Origin: a virus
Taxonomy: Duplodnaviria; Caudoviricetes
DNA length: 60,609 nucleotides
Direction: 5' to 3' (one strand)
Virus record (IMG/VR): IMGVR_UViG_3300027749_000121
Coordinates: 1-60,609 of that record
The notes beneath the pieces are model-generated. The model had not been told where the DNA came from, did not search any database, and saw only the letters and a list, made by a program, of their open reading frames with translations. Shown in pieces: positions 1,972 through 24,902 of the stretch (its first letter is position 1; every line of letters starts with the position of its first letter). Made by a program: the position numbers and the translations under genes.

Positions 1972-1990
1972 AATTAATCTCCTTGTAAAC

Positions 1991-2009: not shown

Positions 2010-2014
2010 ATCAA

Positions 2015-2539: not shown

Positions 2540-2545
2540 GATATT

Positions 2546-2622
2546 TCCTTCATGCAGTTAAAGGTGTATCAGTCTTGCATGATGTCTGCCGGGACAGTTT
2601 GATACACCGGAAAGCCCGGATT
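2546..2622 (-). ncRNA. Pseudoknotted structured RNA leader, probably Mu-gpT-DE-type motif
   Basis: Three interleaved helices: 2615-2619/2589-2593, 2600-2608/2563-2571, 2576-2582/2550-2556; family name from memory of gpT-downstream RNAs, not verified. Confidence 0.6.
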
Positions 2623-2628
2623 ACTGTG

Positions 2629-2657
2629 TTTATATCACGGTATTTTTAAGTGCGCAA
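2629..2657 (-). promoter_or_regulatory. Sigma70-type promoter TTGCGC-N17-TATAAA with extended TG
   Basis: Seen in sequence just upstream of the structured RNA. Confidence 0.65.
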
Positions 2658-2663
2658 CAGTTA

Positions 2664-2692
2664 TTTTTGTTGTCACAATCCGTAGGCATTAT
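2664..2692 (+). promoter_or_regulatory. TTTTTGTTGTCACAA element + CATTAT -10; probable leaderless promoter of the GNAT gene
   Basis: -10 at 2687-2692, 6 nt before ATG 2699; same 15-mer inverted at 3808..3822. Confidence 0.5.
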
Positions 2693-2698
2693 TGGGGC

Positions 2699-3139
2699 AT
2701 GAAATACCGCATTGTCCCTGTTGATACTCGTCAGCCAGAGGTGGTGCAGTTGTTGACGTTGCTTCAAAAAGCGTGTCTCCCCCACGATAAAATTTACCCA
2801 ATTACACAAGGATACTGGCATGTTGTTTACTCGCAAGATGGTGAAGCCGTTGGCTTTGGTGGTGTTGTCCCCTCTACTCGTTGGTCTGACACTATGTACC
2901 TATGTCGCGCAGGCATTACACGCGCTCATCAAGGACAGGGACTCCAGAAGCGGCTTATCCGACAGCGTATTAAAGTGGCCAAAAAACTAAGCATGAACTG
3001 GGTCATTACGGACACCAACGAAAATCCTGCGTCTGCCAATAGCTTAATAGCTACAGGTTTTAAAATGTTTGAGCCATCTCAACCTTGGGGTTTAAAAACG
3101 GCGTTGTACTGGCGGTATCGGATCAAGCATGCCGTATAA
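2699..3139 (+). CDS. GNAT family N-acetyltransferase
   Basis: Acetyl-CoA motif A (RAHQGQGLQKRL) and motif B (NPASANSL..GF). Confidence 0.9.
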   Translation: MKYRIVPVDTRQPEVVQLLTLLQKACLPHDKIYPITQGYWHVVYSQDGEAVGFGGVVPSTRWSDTMYLCRAGITRAHQGQGLQKRLIRQRIKVAKKLSMNWVITDTNENPASANSLIATGFKMFEPSQPWGLKTALYWRYRIKHAV

Positions 3140-3509
3140 AGATAAAATTGTTAAGCAAACTAAACAAAAAACGTACGCAAGTACGTACTACGCCAACAAT
3201 AAAGCCACTGTAATCGCCGCAAGTAAAGCCTCTGCCAAGGCGTATAAAGATCAATGGCGTAGCTTTAAAGCTACATTAGCGTGCGTAAAATGCGGGCAAA
3301 ACCATCCAGCTACCTTTGACTTCCATCACATAGACAGCAACACCAAAGAAGAATCAGTCAATAAGCTGATAAAAAACCGTGCGTTCAAACGGGCTATGGA
3401 AGAAGTCAAAAAATGTATTGTGCTCTGCGCCAACTGCCACCGCATACACCATCACGACGAACGTCTTGTTAAAAAAACCAAAAAGAAGAAGGGGGCCGAA
3501 GCCCCCTAG
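3129..3509 (+). CDS. HNH endonuclease
   Basis: CVKC...FDFHHID...LCANCHRIHH. Confidence 0.88.
   Translation: MPYKDKIVKQTKQKTYASTYYANNKATVIAASKASAKAYKDQWRSFKATLACVKCGQNHPATFDFHHIDSNTKEESVNKLIKNRAFKRAMEEVKKCIVLCANCHRIHHHDERLVKKTKKKKGAEAP
3480..3509 (-). terminator. Rho-independent terminator between convergent genes
   Basis: GGGGGC TTCG GCCCCC followed by TTCTTCTTTTT on - strand. Confidence 0.7.
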
Positions 3510-3511
3510 TA

Positions 3512-3751
3512 TCACTCTTTGTTAGCAGCTTCTGCGGCGGCTTCAGCCACAGCGCCGTCCAACTCTTCTTCTGTGTCGTCTTCGTCTTCAAACTCATCTT
3601 CATCATCAGGCACGGCAATGTACTCAACCGCCCAGCCGTAGTTTTCTTGAAACTGAACAAACTCTTGAAAAATCTGAATCATATCAAAATCAGTTGTTTC
3701 AATAGAAAGTTTGTTATTACCAAAGTACCCAAATTCCATTTCAAATTTCAT
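3512..3751 (-). CDS. Small highly acidic protein
   Basis: 79 aa with DDEDEFEDEDDTEEELD tract; own promoter and terminator. Confidence 0.75.
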   Translation of the reverse strand: MKFEMEFGYFGNNKLSIETTDFDMIQIFQEFVQFQENYGWAVEYIAVPDDEDEFEDEDDTEEELDGAVAEAAAEAANKE

Positions 3752-3793
3752 GATGTGCCCCTATGTTTATGCAACCACAGCGGCTGCAAATTG

Positions 3794-3822
3794 ATCGTAG
3801 TTTAACTTTGTGACAACAAAAA
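3794..3822 (-). promoter_or_regulatory. TTTTTGTTGTCACAA element + TACGAT -10 for the acidic-protein gene
   Basis: TTGTCAC-N10-TACGAT, same spacing as the GNAT promoter. Confidence 0.5.
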
Positions 3823-3841
3823 GGCCACCCGCAGGTGGCCT
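3818..3841 (-). terminator. Terminator after the major capsid gene
   Basis: AGGCCACC-TGCG-GGTGGCCT then TTTT. Confidence 0.8.
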
Positions 3842-3868
3842 CAAACTTACCCTTGTGGGGCTGTTTTA

Positions 3869-4780
3869 TTAGGTTGAACCGGGTGAACCGAAGACGCCCA
3901 ATGGATCAGACCAGCCGAAGCTATAACGCTCACGGGCCTTGTAACGAACGTTACCTGTGTCAAAGTCACCATCCATAGATGTGGACAATGCCATACGCTC
4001 GAAGTGCTTCAAGCCGTTAGGTACGTCAGTTGTCAAGAACCAGCCGTTTGTGTCGGTCAGGTAGTGGTTGATTGTGTAGCCATCAGGGATTGAGCCGTTG
4101 TTCTTCAATGCGTTGATGTCGTTGTCTGTTGTACCAACGCGGAGGCTGGTTTCGAGCAAACGAGTAGCAACGAACTGAAGTGCCGCAGGCACAATCAATT
4201 TCTTAGGCTTAGCAGCGATCAACAAGCCGCGCTCATCAGTCCAAGCAGCGATCTGAATCACAGCGTTTTCCAACGATGTTTCATTCAAGTCAGCATTGGT
4301 TGAAGGACGGTTGCTGTTAGTGCCACCAGACACGAGGGGGTGCGCTGTAGAGAACAGAGCAACACCATCACCACCAGTATAGCTAGAGCTAAAACCGTTG
4401 TTCAAAACGGATGCAGCCTTAACTTGCTTGGTGTAAGCCATAGCACGAGCCAAGCCCTTGGTGTAGCGAGCAGACAAGCTGTCGTACAAGTTATCTTCAA
4501 CCGCTTCTTCAGTGATTGAGAAACCCAAGGCGATGGTTTCGTGGTTGTAGCGAGCCGTGAACGCTTCTTGCGCATTGTCATAAGCAATGGCTGAACCCTC
4601 GTTCTTGACTGGAGCAGCAGAGAAGCCAGACAGTTTGGTCTCTTCTTCAAAGCTACGCTCAGATTTCTCTGTTTCGTAGATTTCTTTGTGCTCTTCGCCG
4701 TAAGTAGCGTACTGCAGGCCGAACAAAGCGTTCAAACCGGGGAGCAGTTCTTTAAGTAGTTGTGCGCGTGAAATAGCCAT
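3869..4780 (-). CDS. Major capsid protein (Mu gpT-like, HK97 fold)
   Basis: MAISRAQLLKELLPGLNALFG N-terminus, DFDTGNVRYKARERYSFGWSDP C-terminus; strong RBS; downstream of scaffold. Confidence 0.93.
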   Translation of the reverse strand: MAISRAQLLKELLPGLNALFGLQYATYGEEHKEIYETEKSERSFEEETKLSGFSAAPVKNEGSAIAYDNAQEAFTARYNHETIALGFSITEEAVEDNLYDSLSARYTKGLARAMAYTKQVKAASVLNNGFSSSYTGGDGVALFSTAHPLVSGGTNSNRPSTNADLNETSLENAVIQIAAWTDERGLLIAAKPKKLIVPAALQFVATRLLETSLRVGTTDNDINALKNNGSIPDGYTINHYLTDTNGWFLTTDVPNGLKHFERMALSTSMDGDFDTGNVRYKARERYSFGWSDPLGVFGSPGST

Positions 4781-4793
4781 GGTAAGTTACTCC

Positions 4794-5408
4794 TTAAATG
4801 CCGGTAGTACTGTTGTACTGAGCCGTGTTGAATTTAACGAGGAACTCGTAATATGTCGTGGCAGCTACGGTGGCAACGCCAGTCGCAGTATCAGGCACAA
4901 CGTCAACAACACGTACGGGAAGCGTAAGAGTAGTGTTGGCGGAAGAACCGTCAATACCATAATACGAGTCACCTGTGGTGGTGGAACCCACGTTAGCAAC
5001 CAAAGCCACGTTAGAACCAACAATCGCACGGCTATAAGCTGTAGGAGTGGTGGAAGCAGCGACTGTAGCGCAGACACGGAACACAGCACTAGGATCATCC
5101 ACAACAAAGGCCATAGCCATAGCTGTTGAAGTTGAAACTGCGGCTGGGTACGCTTGTGAATACGTAGGTTGACTCAACGAGTTGATGTAAGAACATCCAA
5201 CTAACACACCAACAATATTACCTGAGTCAGTGGTATTAGCGGCAACAATGTAGCCACTAGTGTTCACTTGGACGGTATCACCGTTCAGGATTGCTGTTGC
5301 ATAAGCAGGCGCGATTGGGATTTGACGGATCGCTCCGGCGTAGGGTAAACCGTCCAGTCGATTGACCGGCTTGAAACCATACGTCTTGTCAATGGTAGGA
5401 TATGCCAT
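4794..5408 (-). CDS. Putative capsid cement/minor head protein
   Basis: Directly upstream of capsid gene; YGFKPV..., VVDDP motif. Confidence 0.7.
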   Translation of the reverse strand: MAYPTIDKTYGFKPVNRLDGLPYAGAIRQIPIAPAYATAILNGDTVQVNTSGYIVAANTTDSGNIVGVLVGCSYINSLSQPTYSQAYPAAVSTSTAMAMAFVVDDPSAVFRVCATVAASTTPTAYSRAIVGSNVALVANVGSTTTGDSYYGIDGSSANTTLTLPVRVVDVVPDTATGVATVAATTYYEFLVKFNTAQYNSTTGI

Positions 5409-5419
5409 CTATAGACTCC

Positions 5420-5878
5420 TTATTTAGTACCAGAACCAAAACCTGTTCCGCGACTTGATGTTGACTTGCGGTCAGCAAACAAGGGCATCCGAGGGTCGTT
5501 ATTTCGCATGAAATGATTGTCAACTGAATCCATCTGGTTTTGGGATTGGTTGGCATAGTACTCAGCGCGGGCTTGGACGCGTTCTTTGGGAGCCTTGCAA
5601 AGCATCAGCCCACCAATTTCCACGTTGCCGTTTGCGTTGTTGCCAAACAAAGCCAATTCTGGATGATCCACTGCTTTCACCGGCTCATAACCATCGCGCA
5701 TCTGTAAAGACACGTTGTTGGCTAATGGCTGACCTAGCACATGTGTCGCTACCCAGCGAAACATGTAATCTGGATCAGGTGTCGGATCGGGCAGGTTGCT
5801 CGGCGGTACATATACCGTACGAGCAGATTTATCGCGTGACTTAGTGTCACGATTTGAGCGGTCAATAGTTTCAGCCAT
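5420..5878 (-). CDS. Conserved head-module protein
   Basis: YMFRWV...GYEPV...IGGLMLCK; synteny. Confidence 0.75.
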   Translation of the reverse strand: MAETIDRSNRDTKSRDKSARTVYVPPSNLPDPTPDPDYMFRWVATHVLGQPLANNVSLQMRDGYEPVKAVDHPELALFGNNANGNVEIGGLMLCKAPKERVQARAEYYANQSQNQMDSVDNHFMRNNDPRMPLFADRKSTSSRGTGFGSGTK

Positions 5879-5879
5879 T

Positions 5880-6830
5880 TTAATTCTCCAACTTTGCTAC
5901 TTGAGCAGCATATTGCTGCGGGGTTAAACCAAATTTTTTCGCCAACGCTACTTGCGTTTGAGTTAGCTTAATTTTTCCTGCGCTCGTAGAACGAGATACA
6001 GAGGCAACCACTGTCGTAGGTCGTTTTTGAACCTCACCAGACCTTGGCTTGTCATTTGCTTGACCGAATAAATCCGGAAAAGTTGACTTCATGCGACCAT
6101 CAATTTGGTCGAAATATTCAGCAGAGCGGGGATCCACTCCGTTTGTGACTAGTTTTTGGTGCAGCCCTAGTGCGTAGCTGGTGTATTCTTCAAACCCTTG
6201 TTGCCCGAACCACTGGTTTTTTGCCTGCCAGCGCAGAGTTTTTTCGTCGGGCTCAACCTTGGAGGGTTGGGCTTGTTGTGTTTGTACCTCAAAATTATCT
6301 TCCTGTAAAGGGGCAGGTCGATAATTTTTTACTTGTTCTGCACGAATTTTTGCATCCATTACTTCTTCTTGAGCGGCAATGATGGCATCCGTGTCAAACG
6401 ATTCTTGTGCAACTTTCAGTTTAGCGCGGGCATCCTTTAGCTCAGATTCAGCTTTGCCCTTAGCACCTTCAATGATGGCTTCTTGTCCTGTGTAGACGTT
6501 TTGCTTGAGGCGTTTGTTTTCCTCAATTAACTGCTGTGCAAGACGCTCAAGCTCTTGCTTCTCACGCATTGTGGCTTCTTTGACACGGCGCTCGTCGTGA
6601 CGGGCGTGGGTCAACTCTTTAATGCGCCCTTTGACTTTGTCAGAATAGGACTCGATTTCTTCCTCGGTCGGATCAAGCACTTCGCGGTCTAGGGGTTTGC
6701 GGCCTCTGTCACGCTCGGGTGTGTCGTCTTCGATTTCAATCTCTATTTCGCCTTCGCCTTCTATTTCAAACTCAACTTTATCTGTCATTTTGTCCTCGAC
6801 TTCGTCGGGGAACTTGTACGATTCAGCCAT
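5880..6830 (-). CDS. Scaffolding protein
   Basis: Acidic N-terminus, long coiled coil, C-terminal LTQTQVALAKKFGLTPQQYA helix-turn-helix typical of scaffolds. Confidence 0.8.
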   Translation of the reverse strand: MAESYKFPDEVEDKMTDKVEFEIEGEGEIEIEIEDDTPERDRGRKPLDREVLDPTEEEIESYSDKVKGRIKELTHARHDERRVKEATMREKQELERLAQQLIEENKRLKQNVYTGQEAIIEGAKGKAESELKDARAKLKVAQESFDTDAIIAAQEEVMDAKIRAEQVKNYRPAPLQEDNFEVQTQQAQPSKVEPDEKTLRWQAKNQWFGQQGFEEYTSYALGLHQKLVTNGVDPRSAEYFDQIDGRMKSTFPDLFGQANDKPRSGEVQKRPTTVVASVSRSTSAGKIKLTQTQVALAKKFGLTPQQYAAQVAKLEN

Positions 6831-6840
6831 ATTCTTCCTT

Positions 6841-7278
6841 TCAAGCGCGGGTCAGGCCGCGAGGGTCTTGCACAACAGCATCAACTTGGTCGTCGTTGAT
6901 GAGACGGAACTCTTTGCCAAAGATTTTGAATCTTGTGCCGGAGTAAGTACGTACTAACACAAAGTCACCTTCTTTACACCATGCTCCGTTAGGAAACTTG
7001 GTGGTGTCGTTGTACGCATCGGGGCCAACTTTCAGAACAAACAACACAGTGGTTGCTGTTTCTTCTTGGCGCATGCTCTCAATAGGCCGGACTAAGTCCA
7101 GACTTGTACCATCCACTCGTTCAGAGATGTCGGGTACCGCGCAAAGAATCTTCCAACCTGTAGGCAGGGGAAGTTGCGTGGCCTTTAACTCGTCGTTAGC
7201 TTCGGCTTCAGGGGCATCCAAAGGTTGGATGGGTTCAGGCAGTGCAAAAGCACCGGGGGAGAGATCAAGATCACTCAT
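6841..7278 (-). CDS. groES: GroES-like co-chaperonin (start revised to 7278)
   Basis: PTGWKILC, VLKVGPDAY, CKEGDFVL, GKEFRLINDDQVDAVV. Confidence 0.82.
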   Translation of the reverse strand: MSDLDLSPGAFALPEPIQPLDAPEAEANDELKATQLPLPTGWKILCAVPDISERVDGTSLDLVRPIESMRQEETATTVLFVLKVGPDAYNDTTKFPNGAWCKEGDFVLVRTYSGTRFKIFGKEFRLINDDQVDAVVQDPRGLTRA

Positions 7279-7465
7279 TAGATTCTTCAACTTTCTGTGC
7301 AAGGTCAAGTAGATAACGCTCTGCAAGGGCTAGACCCTGAATAATCCCGCAGAGTTTTTGGTACTCTTCAAAAGTACGGCATGAACCACCCGCCAAGTCA
7401 TCGGCATAGTTGTTCATGTCAGTGCGTATTTTTTCACGTAAAACGCGTACGAAGTCTTGAATCAT
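7271..7465 (-). CDS. Small conserved head-module protein
   Basis: Coupled between portal and GroES-like genes; EEYQKLCGIIQGL. Confidence 0.75.
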   Translation of the reverse strand: MIQDFVRVLREKIRTDMNNYADDLAGGSCRTFEEYQKLCGIIQGLALAERYLLDLAQKVEESNE

Positions 7466-9954
7466 TTTCCAGAACCTTGGTTCCTGCTATTTTGGAGCGC
7501 AGCAGTACGCGCTTGTAAATCCATCTGGGCTTTACTCTTTGCGATGTCGGAGCCCATCTGGACGCCGGCACGTTCTTGTTCGAACTGGGTCTTAGCTTGG
7601 GACTCTTTGATTTGTGCACCCACTTTGAGGGCGTCGAGTTCCAAGCGACCGCTGACTTCCTGTTCTCTTAACTGCTGTGCGTCTGCTTGAGCCGCGGCAT
7701 CCATCATGATCTTCTGTTTCTTCAGTTCTAGCTCTTGGCCTTTAAGCTGGAGTTCCTGCATCTGCATCTGCATGACGGGGTCTTGTGCTTGCTGCTGTGC
7801 TTGCATCTGAGCCGCCTGTGCTTGGTTCTGCATAAGAACCTGCTGAGCCGCTTGAGCCATCATGCCGGACAACGCAATCTCGATCTGCGGTGGCAATTTC
7901 TCGTCTTCGGGAGGCAGGGGCATACCCAACTGCTGCTCAATCTGCTGGCGCATTTTGTAGCCAACGTGCTCTGAAATGTGAGCCGTGATCGCCCCCATGA
8001 TCTTAGCGGCTTGTGGGTTTTGACCAATGAATTGCTGAATCATCGGGTCTTGGAGCAACATCATGTGTACTTGGATGTGCGCGGCGTGATCTTGGTGCAA
8101 GAACGCTTTGAGCGGTGTACCTTTAAGTGCATTTTGGTTTTCCTGCACGGGATCGATTGGCTTCTGATCGTCCTCAATTGGCACAAGTTTTTCAGCGTTC
8201 TTGATACCCAAGACGTTCAACATACCGCGGTGTAACTCTGGCAAGTTGTAAATGTCTGGAGCCATCTGCGCCATCTGGATCACAGCTTGATACTGGATCA
8301 CGCGCTGGCTCATGGTGGCCGCATTGGGGTCAGACACGGGGATGATGTCTACCAAATCATAGTCAGACTTCTTAGCTTTACGTGAGCCGTATTCAGGTGT
8401 GTATGTGTAATCTGGGTCGGTGTAGTCGCGGATGATGTTCTTCAAAAGTTTTAACTCTTGCTTCAGCGCAAAGTGCACACGAGCCTGCACCGCAGTCATT
8501 ACCTTTAACTGACGCTCCAGCAACGCCAGCGTTGTACCAACGGGAGCCTGCGCAGACATGTCAGACACCTTCATGTCAGCAGTTGCGGCAAAACGCCTGC
8601 CTTCATCCACGATGGTCTGCATCAAGTTAAACAGCGTCTGGCTTGGCTCCTTGTACGGCAGGGGCAGGATGTTGTCGCGGATCGTGCCCGAACCTACGTC
8701 TACGTCACGGAACTCTCCGGGTGCGATTGGGGTGTCGTCTCCTTTGATTCGCAGGCCCCGTGTCTTAAGTCCACCGGGCAAGTTGCTGAGTGTTCCTGCA
8801 TCGACAAGTTGTCGCATGAGGGATGTAGCGGATTTAGCAAAGCCTCCGATAAGGTGGAAAAGCCCGAAGCCGTAAGCTCCAAAACCCGGAATATATTGGT
8901 AGTGAACAAAGTGCTGGCGCTTGAGTCGGAGGTCATCTTCTTCCTTCCAGTTGCGGCGGATTGACAAGATGTCGTTTGTACCTTTAATCAACGTGACAAC
9001 GTACGGCAGCATGATGCCGGTCTCTTCGTCATCAACCATGTCTTCGTAGCCTTCAAGGTTCAAGTCCACGTGGCACTCATACAGGGTGTAGCGGTCGTCA
9101 TTCAAATCGCTAAAGCCAGTCTCTTTGTCCTTGGCTTTCTGAATGTCTGTCAACTCTTTGGGGGCGTCAGTCAGCTCAATGTCAATGTAAAAGCCCGCTT
9201 GCTGAAGCTTGAGAATCTCGTTCTTGGTCTTGCGCATGACGTGCGTGATGCGGTAGCAAGTATCCAAATCTGTTGTGCCATACGGCAGATACATATCTTC
9301 CGCAGGAATAAACATCGACACTTGACGTCCCAAATTGGGATCGTAGTACACCTTCTTGAAAGCTGAGCCTGTGGCCGGCAGTGACCAGAGCATGCGCTCG
9401 TGTTCAGCGCGGTATTCTGTCATGACTTCCGTCAACTCGTGGTTCATGTCCTCTTCAATGTTGGCCGCGATCTCTTTCATCTCTGGCGTGTCTTTACCCA
9501 GAATCTTAGAACGCACAGGGCCGGAAGCAGGGAACGTCTCAGTAATCGTCTCAGCTTGGAAGCGCACAACGGCTTCGGTAATCATGGGGTGGAACACACC
9601 GCATGCGCCGTTCCAAGGTTCTGTGCGTTCTTCAATCTGCAAGCCCAAAAGCTTCAAACCATCAACGTACGTCTTCTCCCAATCCTTGCGGCCATTCTTG
9701 TCATTGTCAATGTCAGACACCAACTCACTGGCCAGCGACTGCAAGGCACCGCTACTTATGTACTCGGCCAAGTTATCGTCAAAGCCTTCTTCATCGTCAC
9801 CCTCTCCGGGCTTGAGGGTAATCTCCATCCCGTCCATGCCGATGGTGACTTCTTCGGGATCAACGATCTCGATCTCAAGGGGGGATTCTTGCTCGCCCAG
9901 CGCGTCAATGCCCATAGGTTGTTGGTACAGCGCTTTGTCGATGTTGGTAGCCAT
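7462..9954 (-). CDS. Portal protein (P22-like, long Q-rich C-terminal barrel)
   Basis: 830 aa downstream of terminase; GSAFKKVYYD, GFGLFHLIG; C-terminal coiled coil. Confidence 0.9.
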   Translation of the reverse strand: MATNIDKALYQQPMGIDALGEQESPLEIEIVDPEEVTIGMDGMEITLKPGEGDDEEGFDDNLAEYISSGALQSLASELVSDIDNDKNGRKDWEKTYVDGLKLLGLQIEERTEPWNGACGVFHPMITEAVVRFQAETITETFPASGPVRSKILGKDTPEMKEIAANIEEDMNHELTEVMTEYRAEHERMLWSLPATGSAFKKVYYDPNLGRQVSMFIPAEDMYLPYGTTDLDTCYRITHVMRKTKNEILKLQQAGFYIDIELTDAPKELTDIQKAKDKETGFSDLNDDRYTLYECHVDLNLEGYEDMVDDEETGIMLPYVVTLIKGTNDILSIRRNWKEEDDLRLKRQHFVHYQYIPGFGAYGFGLFHLIGGFAKSATSLMRQLVDAGTLSNLPGGLKTRGLRIKGDDTPIAPGEFRDVDVGSGTIRDNILPLPYKEPSQTLFNLMQTIVDEGRRFAATADMKVSDMSAQAPVGTTLALLERQLKVMTAVQARVHFALKQELKLLKNIIRDYTDPDYTYTPEYGSRKAKKSDYDLVDIIPVSDPNAATMSQRVIQYQAVIQMAQMAPDIYNLPELHRGMLNVLGIKNAEKLVPIEDDQKPIDPVQENQNALKGTPLKAFLHQDHAAHIQVHMMLLQDPMIQQFIGQNPQAAKIMGAITAHISEHVGYKMRQQIEQQLGMPLPPEDEKLPPQIEIALSGMMAQAAQQVLMQNQAQAAQMQAQQQAQDPVMQMQMQELQLKGQELELKKQKIMMDAAAQADAQQLREQEVSGRLELDALKVGAQIKESQAKTQFEQERAGVQMGSDIAKSKAQMDLQARTAALQNSRNQGSGK

Positions 9955-9955
9955 G

Positions 9956-10225
9956 TCAGAATTTCTTTCTCAAAGTTGCACGGTTTGTGCTGGGGTCGTA
10001 TTTAAAGGCCGACGGTTTCTTACCTGTGCGTTGGCTTGCTCTGTCAAGAGCGCGTTCTTCAGCCGTCATAGCATCGCGCTTTTTACCGGCGTCTGTCAAA
10101 TTTCCCTGCGCGTCTACATGCCCACGCTGGCGCAGCACATCCAAAGCTCCTTCACGCGAACCCATCTGCGCGGCCAATCGGTCGATCAGTTGGTTCTTAC
10201 CCATGAACTTTTGTGTTGTCATCAA
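9956..10225 (-). CDS. Hypothetical basic protein
   Basis: Coupled between terL and portal. Confidence 0.65.
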   Translation of the reverse strand: MMTTQKFMGKNQLIDRLAAQMGSREGALDVLRQRGHVDAQGNLTDAGKKRDAMTAEERALDRASQRTGKKPSAFKYDPSTNRATLRKKF

Positions 10226-11763
10226 TAGTATTCGTATCTTCTGCGGCGAAAAAGCTCAAGCTCATCTTTCTCATCCGTGTCCAAACTGATAAAGCCGCCT
10301 TGCCTAAAGCGTAGCAGCGCCTGTGTTGTTGTATCCACGTAGTCGTCGTGCTCCCCAACAGGGAACGCGGCCATCTCTTCAATCACTTCCCGTGCCCAGC
10401 GTGTGTCGGGTGCCCAGACTTTACCACTGCTGAATAAATCCGCAACTGCGTTCACCCGCACCATCTTGTCGTTGCCCCTTGACGGACTGAACTCTTGGAC
10501 TGGGATCCCTAACGCCCTGAGTTCTTGGATCAGTGGTGCGCCAGCCGCCTTTTTCTCCACAATGAACGCGTCAGGCTCCCATTCTTTATACTGTTTGAGC
10601 GCAACGACCTTGAGTTCTGGAAAAGCCATCCGGTCTTTAAGAGCGTCGAGCAAGATAACTTGAGGCGTGTCATTTTCTTCCTCGTTGTAGAAGATTCCCC
10701 ACGTTGTGCAGGCTGAATAGTCCGAGTTGTTCTTGGTTTCAAAGGCCGTATCCCAAGACTGAATGATATATTCGCACTTCGGCGGGTCATCGTGCTCCCA
10801 AATACGCCACATCTTACGGCTGACGATGGCAGAGTTCTCAGAAGTTGGTTGCTGCATGTACTGCGCGTTCCAATACCGTGGGTCAATCGACGCTTTTGTT
10901 GATTTCAACGCTTCAAGCGACCACTGCTCTGGCCAAAGAGACTTCTCGTCGTCTTCGTTCTCGTTCAGAATGGCCGGTAACTCCACGATCTCCCATGGAA
11001 TAGCCTCTGGGTTCTTGGTCTGGTAGTCAATCAGGCGCCCAGTCAGGTCTAGGAGCGACCAACGGGTCATCACAATGATAATCCCCCCGCCCGGCATCAG
11101 ACGTTGCAAGGGGCCTGTCTGGAACCAAGACCATGCCGTATCAAACGCAAGTCTACTGTTGGACTTTACGTCTTGCTCAGAATGAGGGTCGTCAATAACA
11201 AATAAATCGGCGCCACGACCAGCCAGTGCTCCACCGACACCAGCAGCATAGTACTGACCCCCAGCGCTAGTAGACCATTTGCCAGCAGCCTTTTGGTCGT
11301 CTGCAACAAGAGTTTGAGGAAAGACATCACGGTACTCCTCCGAATCAATCAAGTTACGTATGCGCCTACCAAAGTCTTCAGACAGACCCGCAGTGTGCGT
11401 GCCCATGATGATCTTCTTCTCAGGATATTTACCTAGAAAGTACGCAGGAAACAAGTAAGATGAGAACTCAGACTTACCCATACGAGGCGCAATGTTGATA
11501 ATCACGCGCTTCTTGCGTCCCTCGACCACGTCCGTAAAGATTTTAGCTAGCTTCTTGTGATGGGGGCCAATCTTAAAGCCGGGGTACACGGCCGTAGCGA
11601 ACCCAAGCATGTTTGTTTTGGCCGCCTGTAGTTTGGCGCGGGACTCACGAAGCTCCAAGTCGTCAAACAACTCCATCTTTTCCTGTACGTTCATGTAAGG
11701 CAAAGCTTTGGCCATGGCTTCTAGCTCAAGCTTACTTAAGGTGGTGAAGTTCTCAGGCTTCAT
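10222..11763 (-). CDS. terL: Terminase large subunit
   Basis: Walker A APRMGKS, Walker B FVIDDP, MTRW coupling motif, RNase H-like SWDTA and HDDYVD. Confidence 0.96.
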   Translation of the reverse strand: MKPENFTTLSKLELEAMAKALPYMNVQEKMELFDDLELRESRAKLQAAKTNMLGFATAVYPGFKIGPHHKKLAKIFTDVVEGRKKRVIINIAPRMGKSEFSSYLFPAYFLGKYPEKKIIMGTHTAGLSEDFGRRIRNLIDSEEYRDVFPQTLVADDQKAAGKWSTSAGGQYYAAGVGGALAGRGADLFVIDDPHSEQDVKSNSRLAFDTAWSWFQTGPLQRLMPGGGIIIVMTRWSLLDLTGRLIDYQTKNPEAIPWEIVELPAILNENEDDEKSLWPEQWSLEALKSTKASIDPRYWNAQYMQQPTSENSAIVSRKMWRIWEHDDPPKCEYIIQSWDTAFETKNNSDYSACTTWGIFYNEEENDTPQVILLDALKDRMAFPELKVVALKQYKEWEPDAFIVEKKAAGAPLIQELRALGIPVQEFSPSRGNDKMVRVNAVADLFSSGKVWAPDTRWAREVIEEMAAFPVGEHDDYVDTTTQALLRFRQGGFISLDTDEKDELELFRRRRYEYY

Positions 11764-12328
11764 CTTTATCTTCTGTTACATCAACTACGTCGATCACACC
11801 CATGAACCTGTTGAGCTTTTCTTTAATACGCATCTCTAGCTCTGTGTCAGACATCTGGGTCTTCTTGACCTCAACCCGTTCGGTAAACAGTGCCACTTCT
11901 GTGACTTTGCCTAGCATGTCTAGCGCTTTAAGCCTGACGCGTGCGTCTGGGTGTTCAACTTCTTTTAGGATCTGAGCGACTGCGTAACCCCTGAGTTCCT
12001 TGGCCTGCTCAACAAAAGCCCAATCGTAGGCAGTCAGCATCCCAACTAAATGCTGCACTGCAGCAGGCGTCTTTAAATTAGCTAGTGCTTGTTGTGTATT
12101 CCCAACAGGCTGGCCTGTCACGAGAGAAGCAAAAGATTTACGGGCTGATTCTTGCTCTGCCTTAGACTCAATCTCTTCATCTTCCAACTCTAGGTTCTTC
12201 AACCATTCAGCGGTCTTGACTTTGGCGTCGATGGTCGTGGTTGGATCTGCCTTTTCAAAAGACAGCACTGCAGCAGTGGCGTCTACCACCTCTGGATGAA
12301 ACTCGCCGTTAATCAGATGTTCAAGCAT
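11753..12328 (-). CDS. terS: Terminase small subunit (probable)
   Basis: Immediately upstream of terL; RLKALDMLGK..LFTERVEV motif. Confidence 0.75.
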   Translation of the reverse strand: MLEHLINGEFHPEVVDATAAVLSFEKADPTTTIDAKVKTAEWLKNLELEDEEIESKAEQESARKSFASLVTGQPVGNTQQALANLKTPAAVQHLVGMLTAYDWAFVEQAKELRGYAVAQILKEVEHPDARVRLKALDMLGKVTEVALFTERVEVKKTQMSDTELEMRIKEKLNRFMGVIDVVDVTEDKDEA

Positions 12329-12355
12329 TGCGTAGGGTTAGTGCTGGCGTCGCAC

Positions 12356-12384
12356 TTGTTGCCTCGTTGCAGTTAGTGTACACT
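12356..12384 (+). promoter_or_regulatory. Promoter TTGTTG-N17-TACACT for candidate sRNA
   Basis: Hexamers and 17-bp spacer seen; points away from terS. Confidence 0.5.
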
Positions 12385-12390
12385 TATTTC

Positions 12391-12474
12391 CGGTGATGGC
12401 GCAAGTCATTGCTTCTCCTTGATGGTTTCAGTTGCCATCTTCAGCCCCGGACATAAGCACCCGGGGCTTTTTTT
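12391..12474 (+). ncRNA. Candidate anti-RBS small RNA
   Basis: Upstream promoter, stem 12395-12400/12434-12439 enclosing CATTGCTTCTCCTTGATG, ends in intrinsic terminator. Confidence 0.55.
12443..12474 (+). terminator. Rho-independent terminator
   Basis: AGCCCCGG-N10-CCGGGGCT followed by T tract. Confidence 0.8.
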
Positions 12475-12483
12475 ATATGGTAT

Positions 12484-12499
12484 TGTCCAACGTTTGACA
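12484..12499. promoter_or_regulatory. Operator-like palindrome TGTCCAACGTTTGACA overlapping divergent promoter candidates
   Basis: Related sites at 19352 and 28018; overlaps TTGACA-N19-TATAAT (+) and ATGTCA-N17-TATAAA (-). Confidence 0.55.
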
Positions 12500-12727
12500 T
12501 GGTACCTTGGAAATTTTTTATAATTTTTGGGGGGTGGGGTGTTTGGGTCTTGTTTTTTGAAAAATGTGATTTGCGGGTGTGGAACAGTGTTCATGCGCGC
12601 GGTGGGACTCCGACTATACAGCTGGGGGTGGGGGATGGGTGGGGTTTAGGGATAGCCAAAATGACCTTTGCCAAACCCCCCATATGGATACTGAAAGTGT
12701 TGATTAGCAATAGTGCTGAGCAACAAC

Positions 12728-12743
12728 GGGGAAAGGTTTCCCC
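12728..12743. repeat. GGGGAAANNTTTCCCC box 1
   Basis: GGGGAAAGGTTTCCCC. Confidence 0.9.
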
Positions 12744-12767
12744 ATTCAATCCACTTAGGAGATAGTC

Positions 12768-13190
12768 ATGTCAGTTAAAACAAATGTAGCTCTGTTCTGC
12801 AAAGCAGGTGTAACCAAAGCCGAAGCCATCGATGCGCTCAAGCGTGACCCGAGCCTCAAGCGCAAAGCCAAGGACACATTGCGTGTGTTGCTGTTGCCGT
12901 TCGTGGCAGAGTTCTGGAAGAAGGATGGCGGCTCGTTGCTCAAGGATGGCGAGGGCAAAGCCAAGGGCACACAGGTCTTGGATAGTAGCCACAAGAACTA
13001 TGAGAACGCTAAGCGTGATCTGTACGATATCGTCAAGGCGATATCAAGCGGATCAAGTGGCAAGAAGGAAGCCATCGAGATACCTGCCGAGTTAATTGCC
13101 GCCGCCGAGAAGCTAGCTAAGCTATCCAAGAAGTATGAGCAATCTCGCAGTCTTGCTAACAAAGCTGTGGCTGAAGCGTTTGCTCAATAA
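12768..13190 (+). CDS. First early gene, basic helical hypothetical protein
   Basis: AGGAG RBS; K/A-rich, 140 aa. Confidence 0.8.
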   Translation: MSVKTNVALFCKAGVTKAEAIDALKRDPSLKRKAKDTLRVLLLPFVAEFWKKDGGSLLKDGEGKAKGTQVLDSSHKNYENAKRDLYDIVKAISSGSSGKKEAIEIPAELIAAAEKLAKLSKKYEQSRSLANKAVAEAFAQ

Positions 13191-13197
13191 TCACAAT

Positions 13198-13213
13198 GGG
13201 GAAAAGTTTCCCC
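13198..13213. repeat. GGGGAAANNTTTCCCC box 2
   Basis: GGGGAAAAGTTTCCCC. Confidence 0.9.
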
Positions 13214-13292
13214 GTTCTTCCATGGCGGTGCAAGCATGAGGCTTGCCCGCTGTTTCATTTCTTGTCCAATCCAAACTCGGGAGTCAATAATC

Positions 13293-13451
13293 ATGTTCAC
13301 AATTATCGTTCGCAACAACGGCATCACCCACGAATACAAAACCGAATCACAAAGCGATGCTCGTGTTTTGTTCCACGCCTTGACTGTAACCTTCCTCCAT
13401 GTAGAAGCGTGGCTTGGCTCAGAGCTAGTTCAAGAATACAAGAACTGCTAA
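13293..13451 (+). CDS. Small early hypothetical protein (start revised)
   Basis: GGGAG RBS before ATG 13293; 52 aa. Confidence 0.65.
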   Translation: MFTIIVRNNGITHEYKTESQSDARVLFHALTVTFLHVEAWLGSELVQEYKNC

Positions 13452-13526
13452 TCCGCAGGGATTTCTACAAGCATAGCGTGCTGTGCTTGTGGGGCTATCC
13501 TGCCCAATACGATCAAGGAGATCACC

Positions 13527-13748
13527 ATGTACCAACTATTCAACCAATACCGCACCAAAGAAGTAGGCATCGTGCAAATCGGCGCTCGTGAGTATCACTT
13601 GCAATACCACTACCCCAATGGCGGTAGCAACTACGTTGTCTACGTCTTCAGCACGAACCTAGCGGAACGTGGGCGTGTGTTCAGCACCGATGAAGCAGCA
13701 CTCGAATGGATAGGCAAACAACCCACACAACTGCCCCTGTTCTCTTGA
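13527..13748 (+). CDS. Small early hypothetical protein
   Basis: AAGGAG RBS; C-terminal QLPLF resembles a beta-clamp-binding motif. Confidence 0.75.
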   Translation: MYQLFNQYRTKEVGIVQIGAREYHLQYHYPNGGSNYVVYVFSTNLAERGRVFSTDEAALEWIGKQPTQLPLFS

Positions 13749-13750
13749 AT

Positions 13751-13766
13751 GGGGAAAGGTTTCCCC
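13751..13766. repeat. GGGGAAANNTTTCCCC box 3
   Basis: GGGGAAAGGTTTCCCC. Confidence 0.9.
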
Positions 13767-13808
13767 ATCACTATGATTATTGACGTCAATAATCTTGTTT
13801 TTTCACGA

Positions 13809-14100
13809 TATCCATGTGTATTGCGTACTGGACGATCAGGTAGACACCTCGCAAGCCGCATGAATGCTAGCGTGGCTCAAAAAAGTGTCATCTTATCTAT
13901 CTTTTTAATATATATATATATATATAGAAGTATATTTATGGGGGGTAGCTCTTTTTCTTTTGCTTGGACTTCTTTTAAAAGACAAGCCCAAGTGCTCTCC
14001 CCAAAAAAGGTAGATAGCTTGCCACATTTATCAAGCAAGCCAGTATTCATGCGGTCTAGCGGGTGTCTACCGAATTGTCCGCTACTATATACACAGGACA
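13809..14100. repeat. Degenerate ~98-bp inverted repeat around an AT-rich/(TA)9 spacer; candidate replication origin
   Basis: Arms 13809-13906 and 14004-14100 align at about 69/98 positions by hand; TA run 13909-13926. Confidence 0.65.
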
Positions 14101-14146
14101 GATTCGGGGTAAAATGTCCACTTGTACTTTGAAAGGATCAATAATC

Positions 14147-14842
14147 ATGTACGAAACATACCTCAACCTCACGCCAAACGAGCTTCATCAAAGATTATTG
14201 AAGCGCAACCGACACCCATCCGAGATCACGCAGATCAAAGACACAGTCGCTCAGATGAAGGAAAAGATGCGTGTCGACAAGATCACACGCCATCAGCGCA
14301 AGCTTGCATGGGACAACGTACTCAAACCGCTACGCTACGAACTCAACAGTGCCAAGGTTGGGCGTGCCTACGATCTCGATGATGAAGATCGTGTTGAGGT
14401 GTTCGATGCGTACATCGCTGTGATGGAGAAGCTATTAAACCGCTTTGCACACCCATCAAGATTATTGGAGCAAACGCCCATGCAACTGGGCAAGGACAAG
14501 AACTTACCTAACGATGGTGAGCATTGGACTGACTGGATACCGCACCGAATCAAGACGCCCATAGCCGAGGCGTTCTACGCCCTACCGCATAAGGCGAAGG
14601 CTAAGCGCAAACTACCCTTCCAACGCACGATGCTGCTCGATCAGCACGCCAAGGCAAAGCTAAGATTATTGAAGTCTACAAACAAAGAACTAGACACGCT
14701 CGAACGCAGACAGGCGGTCGCACCAACCGATGAGCGCACAGATAAGCTGGGGCGTATACGCAAAGCCATCAAGATTATTGACGCTATGCAACCACATGAT
14801 GTAGTACCCGCAACATGGAACACCTTAGATTTGGGAGAGTGA
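14147..14842 (+). CDS. Basic helical hypothetical protein (start revised)
   Basis: AAAGGA RBS before ATG 14147; 231 aa. Confidence 0.8.
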   Translation: MYETYLNLTPNELHQRLLKRNRHPSEITQIKDTVAQMKEKMRVDKITRHQRKLAWDNVLKPLRYELNSAKVGRAYDLDDEDRVEVFDAYIAVMEKLLNRFAHPSRLLEQTPMQLGKDKNLPNDGEHWTDWIPHRIKTPIAEAFYALPHKAKAKRKLPFQRTMLLDQHAKAKLRLLKSTNKELDTLERRQAVAPTDERTDKLGRIRKAIKIIDAMQPHDVVPATWNTLDLGE

Positions 14843-14868
14843 GCACGACCAATGTCTGCTCTCACAAC

Positions 14869-14884
14869 GGGGAAAACTTTCCCC
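14869..14884. repeat. GGGGAAANNTTTCCCC box 4
   Basis: GGGGAAAACTTTCCCC. Confidence 0.9.
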
Positions 14885-14961
14885 ATTCCCTTTTTACCCC
14901 TCGGTCTCGGCGCTTGGGCAATGCCGATGACCATCCTCAAACTGCCTACAAGGAGAAGGCT

Positions 14962-15252
14962 ATGACTTATGAAAACGCAGCAAAAGAGTGGATAGAAAGT
15001 TCGCCATATGTGGACATCCCTGTTGGGCGGTTCACGCTCAGATTCAAATTGACCATCGACAGAGATTGGGGCTGGGTTTGGGAACACATGACGTGGATCC
15101 TCGCAGGAAAAGAATACTGGGAATCGCCAGAGGAAACGTACTTCGATGGTATTTACGACGAAATGAACGCAGACCTACACGATATGTCGTTCATAGATGA
15201 GTTGTTAGAGGCAATGCAGAAGAAACCATTTAACCAAGGAGAAAGCAAATGA
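14962..15252 (+). CDS. Acidic, Trp-rich early hypothetical protein (start revised)
   Basis: AAGGAG RBS before ATG 14962. Confidence 0.75.
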   Translation: MTYENAAKEWIESSPYVDIPVGRFTLRFKLTIDRDWGWVWEHMTWILAGKEYWESPEETYFDGIYDEMNADLHDMSFIDELLEAMQKKPFNQGESK

Positions 15253-15740: not shown

Positions 15741-15756
15741 GGGGAAAGCTTTCCCC
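15741..15756. repeat. GGGGAAANNTTTCCCC box 5
   Basis: GGGGAAAGCTTTCCCC (perfect palindrome). Confidence 0.9.
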
Positions 15757-15784
15757 ATTCTTTTTATACATCAAGGAGAAACGT

Positions 15785-17891: not shown

Positions 17892-17907
17892 GGGGAAAAC
17901 TTTCCCC
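17892..17907. repeat. GGGGAAANNTTTCCCC box 6
   Basis: GGGGAAAACTTTCCCC. Confidence 0.9.
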
Positions 17908-17933
17908 ATTCTTTTACATCAAGGAGTTTTATT

Positions 17934-19070: not shown

Positions 19071-19087
19071 AAACCAAGGAGAAGTAA

Positions 19088-19373: not shown

Positions 19374-19393
19374 ATCAACTCAAGGAGAAAATA

Positions 19394-19612: not shown

Positions 19613-20276
19613 CATGCAAACCGCCCTCAAGACCGCACTTAGCACAACCTTACAGGAATGGGATGACGATGGGGAAAGTTTTCCCCATTCTCCTTCTGTT
19701 CAACCAGTGTCATCTTCTTTATCGCCACCAACTCAAGGAATTCCCATGACCAAGCAGCTCTTTCCAATTAAAAATAACATCACTCGCGTCACGTTTAACT
19801 ACATCCGAGACAACCCCGGATCCACACGCAAAGAGATCATCACTGCGCTTGAGCATCAGGACTACAACAGCGGATCAACTTCGTCGCTAATTTCGCAACT
19901 GCGTAAGAATGGTCTGGTGCACATGACCAACGATCTGTACTATGCGGATGCAGATGAGTACGCGCCACTCAAGAAAGTGAAACCTCTGAAAAGCAACGGA
20001 CTCAAACCCGCACGAGAGCCTTTTGCTAAGCGTAAGTACGAGAAGAAAGCCGTGACAGGCATCGGTGCGTTACTACGCGAGAAGCTGCAAGCCATGCCAG
20101 AGCCTAGCAAAGAAGCGCTGGATGCAGCTATGAGAGCGATGGAACCTGCGCATATACCCAACAGACGCTACACATCCCTCGTACGCACCAAGACGCCACA
20201 CGATATATTGCAGGACATGACTGTGTATCAGGCGCATGAGTTGTACGTTCACTTGAAACAGATGTTCGGGGGCTGA
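19605..20276 (+). CDS. Winged-helix DNA-binding protein (alternative in-frame start at 19746)
   Basis: FNYIRDNPGSTRKEII...SSLISQLRKNGLV. Confidence 0.7.
   Translation: MPDMQTALKTALSTTLQEWDDDGESFPHSPSVQPVSSSLSPPTQGIPMTKQLFPIKNNITRVTFNYIRDNPGSTRKEIITALEHQDYNSGSTSSLISQLRKNGLVHMTNDLYYADADEYAPLKKVKPLKSNGLKPAREPFAKRKYEKKAVTGIGALLREKLQAMPEPSKEALDAAMRAMEPAHIPNRRYTSLVRTKTPHDILQDMTVYQAHELYVHLKQMFGG
19671..19686. repeat. GGGGAAANNTTTCCCC box 7
   Basis: GGGGAAAGTTTTCCCC. Confidence 0.9.
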
Positions 20277-20277: not shown

Positions 20278-20460
20278 ATGGATGAAGAAACAAGAGAGAT
20301 GGACTTGCAGTTGGCCGAGCTTGATGTAGAAGTCAAACGGCTACGCAGGATTGAGCAAGCCGCCCATGCTGTGATGAAAGCGTTTGGCAACAGCATTGAC
20401 TACAACACATGGGACAAGGCGCTTGATGCGCTTGAAACTGTACTCAAGGAGAAACCATGA
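20278..20460 (+). CDS. Hypothetical protein
   Basis: Tight operon packing. Confidence 0.65.
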   Translation: MDEETREMDLQLAELDVEVKRLRRIEQAAHAVMKAFGNSIDYNTWDKALDALETVLKEKP

Positions 20461-21870: not shown

Positions 21871-22147
21871 CTTCGCAATGACAGACGAAGAGCTACACCG
21901 CAGAGTCGAGGCCATGTCAGACGATGAGCAAGAGCACTTCAGACTACTGATCCACAAGTTGGTGATGTGCTACGGCCAAGGCAAGGCGCAGGGCATTGTC
22001 ATCATTGGACGCGCTGAAGATCAATTAGCAGGAGTCGTCACCCTAAACTGTGACGAGATGGAGGCGTCGCAACTCATGTTGGCGGCAAACGATTTTTTCG
22101 GCTTTCTAAACGTCCTCGACGCACCACCCAAGGAGAATTTTAATTGA
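21851..22147 (+). CDS. Hypothetical protein
   Basis: AAGGAG RBS. Confidence 0.7.
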   Translation: MNYVEPDFAMTDEELHRRVEAMSDDEQEHFRLLIHKLVMCYGQGKAQGIVIIGRAEDQLAGVVTLNCDEMEASQLMLAANDFFGFLNVLDAPPKENFN

Positions 22148-22413: not shown

Positions 22414-22637
22414 CTGACTGTCCAAACTGTGAGTACCACAGGAAACGAGCACAACTGTGGCGTGAGGAAGCCTACAAGCAAGCAGGGCATCCGTTGCCTG
22501 AGCGTGGTTGGGTAGGGCTGACGGATGGAGATATTGCCGAAATATATAACCAAAAAGATTGGGACATTCACACCAATTGGGATTATGAAAGAGCCATTGA
22601 AGCCAAACTCAAGGAGAAGAACCATGCTAGTCCGTAA
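22410..22637 (+). CDS. Hypothetical phage protein
   Basis: WVGLTD...AIEAKLKEKN pattern. Confidence 0.7.
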   Translation: MTDCPNCEYHRKRAQLWREEAYKQAGHPLPERGWVGLTDGDIAEIYNQKDWDIHTNWDYERAIEAKLKEKNHASP

Positions 22638-24887: not shown

Positions 24888-24902
24888 CAAGGAGAAGCGG
24901 TA

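Follow-up and report, generated by a model that had tools for sequence, protein, structure and literature searches.

The IMG/VR record IMGVR_UViG_3300027749_000121 is a linear phage sequence of 60.6 kb with a CheckV completeness estimate of 79%, and the whole of it (60,609 nucleotides) constitutes the window analyzed here. Its genes are organized in two opposed arms. The minus-strand open reading frames (ORFs) at 732-12328 and 32991-60254 code for packaging, structural and lysis functions, with products such as TerL (10222-11763), the portal, the major head protein, an endolysin and tail proteins. The plus-strand ORFs at 12768-32868 code for replication and nucleotide functions, including an amidoligase-domain protein, a family-A DNA polymerase, a PD-(D/E)XK nuclease, a SNF2-type helicase and a DUF927 primase/helicase-like protein, along with many small proteins. 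Going by function and strand, we term the plus-strand replication set 'early' and the minus-strand set 'late'. An integrase, a repressor and an RNA polymerase were not detected among 66 ORFs compared with the PHROGs (E <= 1e-5), the sole basis on which we speak of their absence. Between the two arms lies a divergent gap (12329-12767), which houses the element that is the subject of this work: a gene on the plus strand for a small RNA (sRNA) of ~84 nt (12391-12474), predicted to pair with the ribosome sites of the phage's own early genes. Its divergent neighbor is the first gene of the leftward late operon (11753-12328, minus strand), which lacks a Shine-Dalgarno sequence of its own and codes for a 191-aa protein with a weak match to HEAT_2 and no PHROG match. 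More than 590 related TerL stretches are present in IMG/VR and one early protein of the phage has 3768 homologues; a nucleotide search for isolated phages with positions 11700-13300 of the window gave zero matches.

The transcription unit can be read directly from the plus strand, where both the promoter and the terminator claimed by an earlier, sequence-only reading of this DNA are present. The promoter comprises a -35-like hexamer TTGTTG (12356-12361) and, after a 17-nt spacer, a -10-like hexamer TACACT (12379-12384), and agrees with the consensus at 7/12 positions. The -10 hexamer is embedded in a perfect 10-bp palindrome, AGTGTACACT (12375-12384), the exact copy of which is unique in the window, and the corresponding 10-mer is palindromic in 26/36 homologues, including the variant AGTATATACT. 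The intrinsic terminator (12443-12474) has an 8-bp GC-rich stem (12443-12450 paired with 12461-12468), a 10-nt loop and seven T (12468-12474). Neither signal was reported by the automated scans, because the -35 fits just 3/6 positions of the consensus and the terminator loop exceeds 8 nt. With the 5' end placed from the promoter and the 3' end at the U-run of the terminator, the RNA has a folding energy of -33.3 kcal/mol (z = -3.9 relative to shuffles) and forms, in order, stem-loop 1, an open UCUCCUU, stem-loop 2, a UUC linker and the terminator. Stem-loop 1 (12392-12413) has 9 bp, four of them G-U, capped by a GCAA loop, and its 3' strand CAUUGCU supplies the 5' part of the seed region CAUUGCUUCUCCUUGAUG (12407-12424). 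The sequence-variable stem-loop 2 (12421-12439) is formed by GAUGGU and GCCAUC, the first of which takes in the 3' end of the seed. The seed had been described as lying inside a loop, a description that the fold corrects: only UCUCCUU (12414-12420) is single-stranded, and so the 18-mer is not a loop but has both its ends in stems. Among the traits of Hfq-dependent sRNAs are a Rho-independent terminator with a tail of at least six U and a U-rich stretch directly ahead of its hairpin. These sequence features are present here, with a UUUUUUU tail and a CUUC or CUUU linker ahead of the terminator that is kept in the homologues.

The relatives used for comparison are 80 TerL-anchored loci from IMG/VR with 76-95% TerL identity. 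A promoter of the form TTGNNN-N17-TAYACT was found in 33/36 distinct homologous segments, always with a spacer of 17 nt. The tract UUGCUUCUCCU is near-invariant, and UUGC-UUCUCCU shows at least 90% conservation across 62 distinct homologues in an otherwise variable RNA. Folded on their own, 32/32 distinct homologues adopt the layout described above, and in each minimum-energy fold the UCUCCU core stays unpaired; insertions that relatives carry in stem-loop 1 form nested hairpins. Aligning all 32 homologues with MAFFT and RNAalifold overlooked the terminator on account of indels; hence a covariance model, R1, was built from a subset alignment of 14 homologues. R1 has a single match in the window (91.2 bits) and recovers 69/80 TerL-anchored loci at E <= 0.01 in identical position and orientation; three further loci, at E = 7e-4, bring this to 72/80, upstream of the first late gene. 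Seven of the eight loci without a match have less than ~720 nt upstream of TerL, whereas the eighth (L037) has the DNA and yet no match. Exactly one copy of the sRNA was found in 10/25 helicase-anchored records, including 3/3 with at least 90% completeness, and in 5/5 further TerL-anchored records. A loose DNA pattern (TACACT, gap, seed) run over IMG/VR returned at least 119 stretches, of which 80 were examined; 23 of the 80 listed are true copies by the model and the rest are chance matches.

The structure itself shows compensatory change. In the model-fitted alignment A3, 91.6% of the pair cells pair and 17/21 base pairs change on both sides; the 185 cells changed on both sides were reached by 0/500 shuffles, and controls with slid partners gave 41-59%. 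Stem-loop 2 has changes on both sides at 5/6 pairs across the homologues, and the terminator stem covaries, with the T-run kept on the plus strand only. This T-run, together with the abundant G-U pairs, which would be A-C mismatches on the other strand, marks the plus strand as the one that folds. We accordingly regard 12391-12474 as very probably a real and conserved sRNA gene, as judged from its sequence signatures. In the nearest isolates (DSL-LC04, 023Pt_psg01 and Pelagibacter phage HTVC027P, at ~50% TerL identity) R1 finds no match at E <= 1 across the whole records, which may reflect either absence or divergence; the counts of AGGAGAAGC in those isolates and in two members of the clade, 0-3 per genome, are too small for comparison. 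A distant homologue, L333 (in genome G031; 1709-1809, minus strand), has two tandem CU-rich tracts, CUCCUCCUUGUU and GCUUUCCUUGUU, in place of one.

Complements of the seed recur at the starts of early genes on the plus strand. Every complementary site listed in the sequence-only reading was reproduced by script as an exact complement of 12407-12424, and five more (13512, 19380, 20444, 15235 and 22129) extend that list. The longest predicted pairings are a 13-nt perfect complement covering the ribosome site and AUG of a 133-aa gene (28044-28056, gene start 28054), the product of which has a PHROG match labelled 'minor head protein', and a 12-nt perfect complement, GGAGAAGCAAUG, covering the ribosome site and AUG of the SNF2-type helicase (26415-26426). 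The ribosome site of the amidoligase-domain gene, CAUCAAGGAGAA (15769-15780), also offers 12 nt, and those of a 101-aa gene (24888-24898) and a 93-aa gene (22609-22619) offer 11 nt each. Predicted targets with 10 nt are the ribosome sites of the family-A DNA polymerase (22887-22896), of a 73-aa gene (13512-13521) and of a 368-aa gene (CAUCAAGGAG, 17917-17926), together with the gene-start sites at 14949-14958, 19380-19389, 20444-20453 and 19075-19087, the last with 10 exact nt (19075-19084) extended by one G-U pair. Two gene-start sites, 15235-15243 and 22129-22137, have 9 nt each. The 368-aa gene had been labelled 'GATase', which finds no confirmation in Pfam (0 families). Elsewhere on the plus strand, matches of 9-10 nt lie off early gene starts at 2162, 2927, 12124, 33722 and 52590; the minus-strand matches are the element itself and one 9-mer within a coding region (6563-6555), and nothing else.

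The preference for early genes was assessed on 33 early and 47 late starts from rough gene calls (ORFs of at least 50 aa). Complements of at least 10 nt are found at 11/33 early starts as against 0/47 late starts, so that the early-versus-late enrichment put forward as a check by the sequence-only reading is borne out. The mean duplex energy is -16.6 kcal/mol for early and -12.2 kcal/mol for late starts (p = 7e-4), and none of 1000 seeds with shuffled flanks and a fixed CUCCUU core reached the observed mean energy or count. When the entire RNA is cofolded, which includes the cost of unfolding, the values become -8.1 kcal/mol for early and -4.1 kcal/mol for late starts, with 22/33 early and 8/47 late starts at or below -6 (p = 2.5e-5). 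The bias does not extend to the whole early arm, as had been claimed: pairing is poor at the first four ORFs after the putative early promoter (12768, 13196, 13773 and 14147) and at several other early genes, the primase gene at 29974 among them.

The same contrast is seen across 11 genomes, in which matches of at least 10 nt occur at 72/417 same-strand starts versus 4/417 opposite-strand starts; when only sites bearing AGGAG are considered, matches of at least 9 nt occur at 88/156 early versus 4/55 late sites. Along with the flank shuffles, these counts uphold the earlier claim that the pairing of the seed with ribosome regions of this phage's early and replication genes exceeds what a generic Shine-Dalgarno offers. 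Changes in the seed are mirrored at its unlinked sites, a kind of signal that is normally taken as strong evidence for RNA-RNA pairing. Of 79 helicase sites read in relatives, nearly all retain GGAGAAGCA(A) while the sequence upstream diverges, and 13 records contain both the sRNA and the helicase gene. The seed CAUUGCUUCUCC accompanies the helicase site GGAGAAGCAAUG in seven of these, and an eighth record, with the seed CUGUUGCUUCUCC, has the same site (10-nt match). The seed GCUUUCUCC, with an extra U, accompanies the site GGAGAAAGCAUG, with an extra A, in 4/4 records, and genome G004 combines the seed CAUUUGCUUCUCCUGAUG with the site CAUCAGAGAAGCAAAUG. Over entire genomes, the spacer classes GGAGAAGC and GGAGAAAGC stand at 19:5 with the GCUUCUCC seed and at 2:12 with the GCUUUCUCC seed.

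Orthologous sites at four further genes likewise change along with the seed. Those of the 28044-28056 site do so in the GCUUUCUCC-seed genomes and in G004; the orthologue of the amidoligase gene in G003 has CUCAAGGAGAA, which fits the seed of G003 itself; and the orthologues of the 368-aa gene have CUCAAGGAG in G003 and CAUCAGGAG in G004, each fitting the seed of its own genome. The matched variants are of several kinds: the seed may gain a U where the sites gain an A, C-to-U in the seed may be met by G-to-A in the sites, or the 3' flank of the seed may be altered. G036, with the seed UUUGUUUCUCC, has GGAGAAACAA at 4/30 early sites versus 6/417 elsewhere. Two seeds with a changed 3' flank go with private 5' flanks of the sites: G004, with the seed CUCCUGAU, has AUCAGGAG three times, and G032, with the seed CUCCUACU, has AGUAGGAG, which occurs three times there and nowhere else. 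At least five seed classes were counted. Since the genomes are related, the tests overstate independence, although at every site the change had to arise at a locus of its own. The covariation of seed and targets that had been proposed as a check is therefore present as compensated complementarity at ribosome sites across genomes, with exceptions in G001, G002, G020, G034, G035 and at gene 21851.

Based on these observations, we posit that the element probably encodes a trans-acting anti-ribosome-site sRNA of ~84 nt that represses the phage's own replication-module genes by pairing; its transcription, repressive action and timing are all predicted here from sequence. The host RNA polymerase would transcribe it from the conserved sigma-70-type promoter, and its own intrinsic terminator would end the transcript. 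The open UCUCCUU would nucleate on the Shine-Dalgarno of the phage's plus-strand early and replication mRNAs, after which the duplex could grow on both sides of the open stretch: on the 5' side it would invade the 3' strand of stem-loop 1 (UUGCUU) and so cover the spacer and at some sites the AUG, and on the 3' side it would invade stem-loop 2 and so cover the bases that precede the Shine-Dalgarno. The resulting 10-16 bp would occlude the 30S binding site and lower the translation of a dozen small early proteins as well as of the helicase, the DNA polymerase and the amidoligase-domain protein; the duplex might then be cleaved. Late structural genes, with different ribosome sites, would escape. 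The sequence evidence does not discriminate among the roles offered in the sequence-only reading, namely an early-to-late switch, superinfection exclusion and carrier-state control.

Several observations weigh against this proposal. The sRNA promoter is weak by consensus, and was called from conservation alone. The seed beyond UCUCCUU is mostly buried in stem-loops 1 and 2 and would need to be opened, and a single RNA would have to suffice for a dozen or more mRNAs, which is a matter of stoichiometry. The generic 16S anti-Shine-Dalgarno tail also favors early genes (-7.9 versus -6.3 kcal/mol), so that part of the early/late contrast reflects stronger Shine-Dalgarno sequences. Among the genomes compared, the 8-mer predicted from a genome's own flank is missing or not the commonest in G001, G002, G034 and G035, and G005 contributes only 7 sites to this comparison; in G020, a foreign seed type has 8 matches of at least 10 nt against 6 for its own seed; and in the GCUUUCUCC-seed genomes the other spacer type is retained at the orthologue of gene 21851. 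Furthermore, the GCUUUCUCC-seed genomes are probably one clade, and the Fisher p of 1.5e-4 for the spacer classes consequently overstates independence. Finally, the fitting of alignment A3 to the model makes its pair counts lean towards structure.

A mirror image of the sRNA promoter was found on the opposite strand. Its possible -35, TTGCGC (12399-12404, minus strand), overlaps the loop of stem-loop 1, and its -10 hexamer (12380 to 12375, minus strand) lies within AGTGTACACT. The resulting element, TTGC(G/A)C-N18-TACACT, faces the late operon, and a TTGnnn at a distance of 16-19 nt (nearly always 18) from the mirror hexamer is found in 34/36 homologues, its -35 coinciding with the conserved GCGCAAG loop of stem-loop 1. 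The mirror element is a possible promoter of the late operon, and the arrangement suggests a bidirectional promoter that either couples the sRNA to late transcription or makes the two compete; bidirectional promoters are reported to bind polymerase in one orientation at a time (PMC12825309). The sRNA might thus be co-made with the late operon or compete with it. If it is co-made, late transcription would automatically produce a silencer of early translation, and the sRNA would act as an early-to-late translational switch tied to the late operon. In this broader idea, these lytic phages would run the early-to-late switch at translation by means of an RNA, in place of a protein, fired from one arm of a symmetric bidirectional promoter with the late operon on its other arm; the replication-module genes would bear a private extended tag of Shine-Dalgarno plus spacer, approximately CAAGGAGAAGCAA, which a single sRNA reads and with which it co-evolves. 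The idea is a tentative one, and we consider it rather doubtful as things stand.

Other readings of the locus assign the conserved tract a different role. On the minus strand, it reads CAAGGAGAAGCAAUG and is followed by a 23-codon ORF (12409 down to ~12338), which qualifies the earlier statement that the unit has no ORF; no ORF is conserved on either strand. The tract could on this account be the ribosome site of a leader peptide or of a longer version of the 191-aa late protein, its likeness to early sites merely reflecting the strong ribosome site that this phage usually employs. The short ORF ends in a TAA that is in frame with the 191-aa ORF and precedes its ATG by 9 nt; the 191-aa ORF lacks a Shine-Dalgarno of its own. 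Three close relatives (L005, L006 and L014) lack this stop, and their leader ORF continues in frame into the 191-aa protein. Against this, 13/36 distinct homologues lack an ATG, GTG or TTG 4-10 nt after the GGAG, among them the whole GCUUUCUCC-seed group, in which the tract is nevertheless retained; the lengths of the ORF range from 6 to at least 52 codons, and the peptides are unrelated between clades. The T-run that follows the hairpin on the plus strand only, the G-U pairs of stem-loop 1, which are impossible on the minus strand, and the conserved plus-strand promoter also speak against it. Given the missing start codons and the unrelated peptides we rejected the leader-ORF interpretation, to which we concede only a very slight probability. 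Less credible still is that the block consists of DNA signals only, such as a packaging site, operators, a bidirectional promoter or a terminator of stray transcription, with the complementarity a coincidence. The element does adjoin the terminase genes, and there are palindromes at 12375-12384 and 12484-12499, but DNA signals do not account for compensatory changes in two stems and the terminator (the 185 cells matched by none of 500 shuffles), for strand-specific G-U pairs, for the union of promoter, terminator and T-run as one unit in 72/80 loci, or for a complementarity that beats 1000/1000 flank shuffles.

Two alternatives accept the RNA and differ on what it acts upon. It might mainly target host mRNAs, as a general anti-Shine-Dalgarno shut-off, or the early genes of superinfecting relatives, with the self-match tolerated. 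The CUCCUU core fits any strong Shine-Dalgarno, the same seed would match the early genes of any related phage, and the RNA has a sub-threshold, full-length match (26.7 bits) to the Rfam family RF02278, in which overexpression of one member slows growth (PMC5688073). We nonetheless hold this to be unlikely: the seed's flanks match the early sites of this phage far more closely than shuffled ones (0/1000), and they co-change with those sites, a co-variation that a purely host-directed RNA does not predict. Somewhat less probable again is a function as a cis-antisense or promoter-level regulator of the late operon, with the early match secondary. The sRNA gene is head to head with the first late gene, its -35 is just 28 nt from the first late ATG, and late transcripts starting to the right of 12474 would carry its full complement in their leader. 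The promoter scan listed zero sigma-70-like leftward promoters in 12329-12767, and since the mirror promoter overlaps that of the sRNA in 34/36 homologues, the two could exclude each other, in keeping with the one-orientation binding noted above. However, an antisense RNA is complementary whatever its sequence, which leaves both the near-invariant 11-nt tract and the co-variation with distant sites unexplained; moreover, if the mirror element is the late promoter, the late leader would start near 12368 and have zero overlap with the sRNA. Such cis regulation is compatible with repression of early genes in trans, and both can hold.

Several further elements were observed in the surroundings of the sRNA gene and its predicted targets. 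A 16-bp palindrome, TGTCCAACGTTTGACA or TGTCCAACCTTAGACA, is present twice (12484-12499 and 28018-28033), at places where relatives have it too. It resembles an operator for a dimeric regulator, and the 133-aa protein was considered as a possible binder. The first copy lies 10 nt past the sRNA terminator and overlaps a TTGACA 19 nt before TATAAT (12519-12524), a possible early promoter, and the second is directly upstream of the 133-aa gene, the best sRNA target. The two best targets have in common an A/T-rich stretch (AGACAAUAA(A)UAAU-like) that immediately precedes the Shine-Dalgarno (26390-26414 and 28018-28043) and is kept in relatives despite differing neighboring bases; it might act in processing or as a middle promoter. 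Tracts with several runs of 3-6 G (12525-12545 and 12611-12645, plus strand), which have predicted G-quadruplex potential, lie in the long leader that separates the putative early promoter from the first early gene. A block around GTGTGGAACAGTGTTCATGCGCG (12573-12598) is kept even in distant relatives as separate BLAST segments (for example, in L035 and L045); a sigma-54 reading of it was discarded, as the spacing, judged by eye, does not fit.

A hairpin, GGGGAAAnnTTTCCCC, occurs in seven exact copies on the plus strand (12728-12743, 13198-13213, 13751-13766, 14869-14884, 15741-15756, 17892-17907 and 19671-19686), between or just before early genes and mostly followed by ATTC and a T-rich run, where 0.11 copies are expected by chance. 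It is missing in the same form from 10 related genomes and is hence a genome-specific repeated element, with an attenuator, a site of processing and a small mobile element as candidate identities. In the late arm, a 2880-aa ORF (32991-41633, minus strand) has a C-terminal LPD38 domain as its only Pfam match and no PHROG match, and is probably a giant virion or ejection protein. We considered and dismissed the possibility that it is an N4-like virion RNA polymerase with the hairpins as its promoters, as Pfam finds LPD38 only, the PHROGs find nothing and the hairpins are missing in 10 relatives. An HNH endonuclease gene (3129-3509, plus strand) lies on the opposite strand inside the late structural arm, next to a plus-strand ORF (2699-3139) without a match.

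Phage-encoded small RNAs that pair with phage mRNA are known from c4 of P1 and P7, Sar of P22, OOP of lambda and the CI RNA of P4, of which c4 and Sar pair at the ribosome-binding region and block expression. These RNAs each act on one gene or operon (ant, cII) in the immunity or lysogeny control of temperate phages, and are cis-encoded or derive from a nearby duplicate. In contrast, the sRNA described here is unlinked to its predicted targets (at 1 to 16 kb), which amount to a dozen or more sites, and belongs to a phage without a detected integrase or repressor (PHROGs, 66 ORFs). Neither C4 (RF01695) nor any other phage RNA family of Rfam matches the region (E <= 1 in 11000-15000, E <= 10 in 12300-12560). 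The temporal control of lytic phages is usually explained by transcription, through new sigma factors, phage polymerases and anti-terminators, supplemented by a few proteins such as RegA and RegB of T4, the former a translational repressor and the latter an endoribonuclease that cuts GGAG in early ribosome sites. By analogy, the sRNA would resemble RegA and RegB as a phage-made factor for the initiation regions of many of the phage's own early mRNAs that spares late genes, with the difference that those are proteins, whereas here an RNA would perform the recognition by base pairing with the Shine-Dalgarno and spacer tag.

The nearest architectural analogue is RF02278, of which the phage sRNA is not a member: the window scores 26.7 bits at 12412-12474 (plus strand) against a gathering cut-off of 50, with the model aligned over its full length (E = 0.0014 in a 261-nt search, 0.021 in 4 kb), and no match at the gathering score was found in the whole window or in the loci of 20 relatives. 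Any common descent with this family is unproven. The RF02278 'toxic small RNAs' of Burkholderia and other Betaproteobacteria (ncS03, ncS05, ncS27 and ncS62) are double-hairpin RNAs in which unpaired CU-rich tracts complement ribosome sites (PMC5688073, PMC4603805), with 3-5 dispersed chromosomal copies per Burkholderia-type genome, and overexpression of one member slows growth (PMC5688073). Both they and the phage RNA are predicted to cover many ribosome sites. In layout the comparison is mixed: the phage RNA has an open CU-rich tract, a hairpin and a terminator, but also an additional 5' stem-loop and a middle hairpin with a loop that is not CU-rich as in the Rfam consensus. Unlike the family, it is phage-borne and single-copy, at a fixed position per phage genome, with a seed tuned to the phage's own genes. 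The C- or CU-rich anti-Shine-Dalgarno sRNAs RsaE/RoxS of Firmicutes and the NmsRs of Neisseria, as mentioned in PMC5688073, share with it an unpaired pyrimidine-rich seed against several Shine-Dalgarno regions, and a promoter and terminator of their own; they differ in being chromosomal and regulating host metabolism, and no sequence or model similarity to the phage sRNA was found. Phage sRNAs acting on host genes (10.1101/2024.10.31.621285, PMC13502914) and an sRNA acting across phage and satellite (10.1101/2022.04.08.487710) are reported, and in searches of open-access papers and bioRxiv we found no sRNA of a lytic phage aimed at many of its own early ribosome sites.

A very abundant group of uncultured phages thus appears to direct one sRNA against its own early ribosome sites, a dozen or more of them. 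If true, this would add an RNA-based 'regulon of self' to phage biology and help account for the unusually uniform ribosome sites of some phages. It would also provide a simple sequence rule for spotting early genes in related metagenomic phages and, in the form of seed and tag, a compact and portable translational off-switch for synthetic biology.

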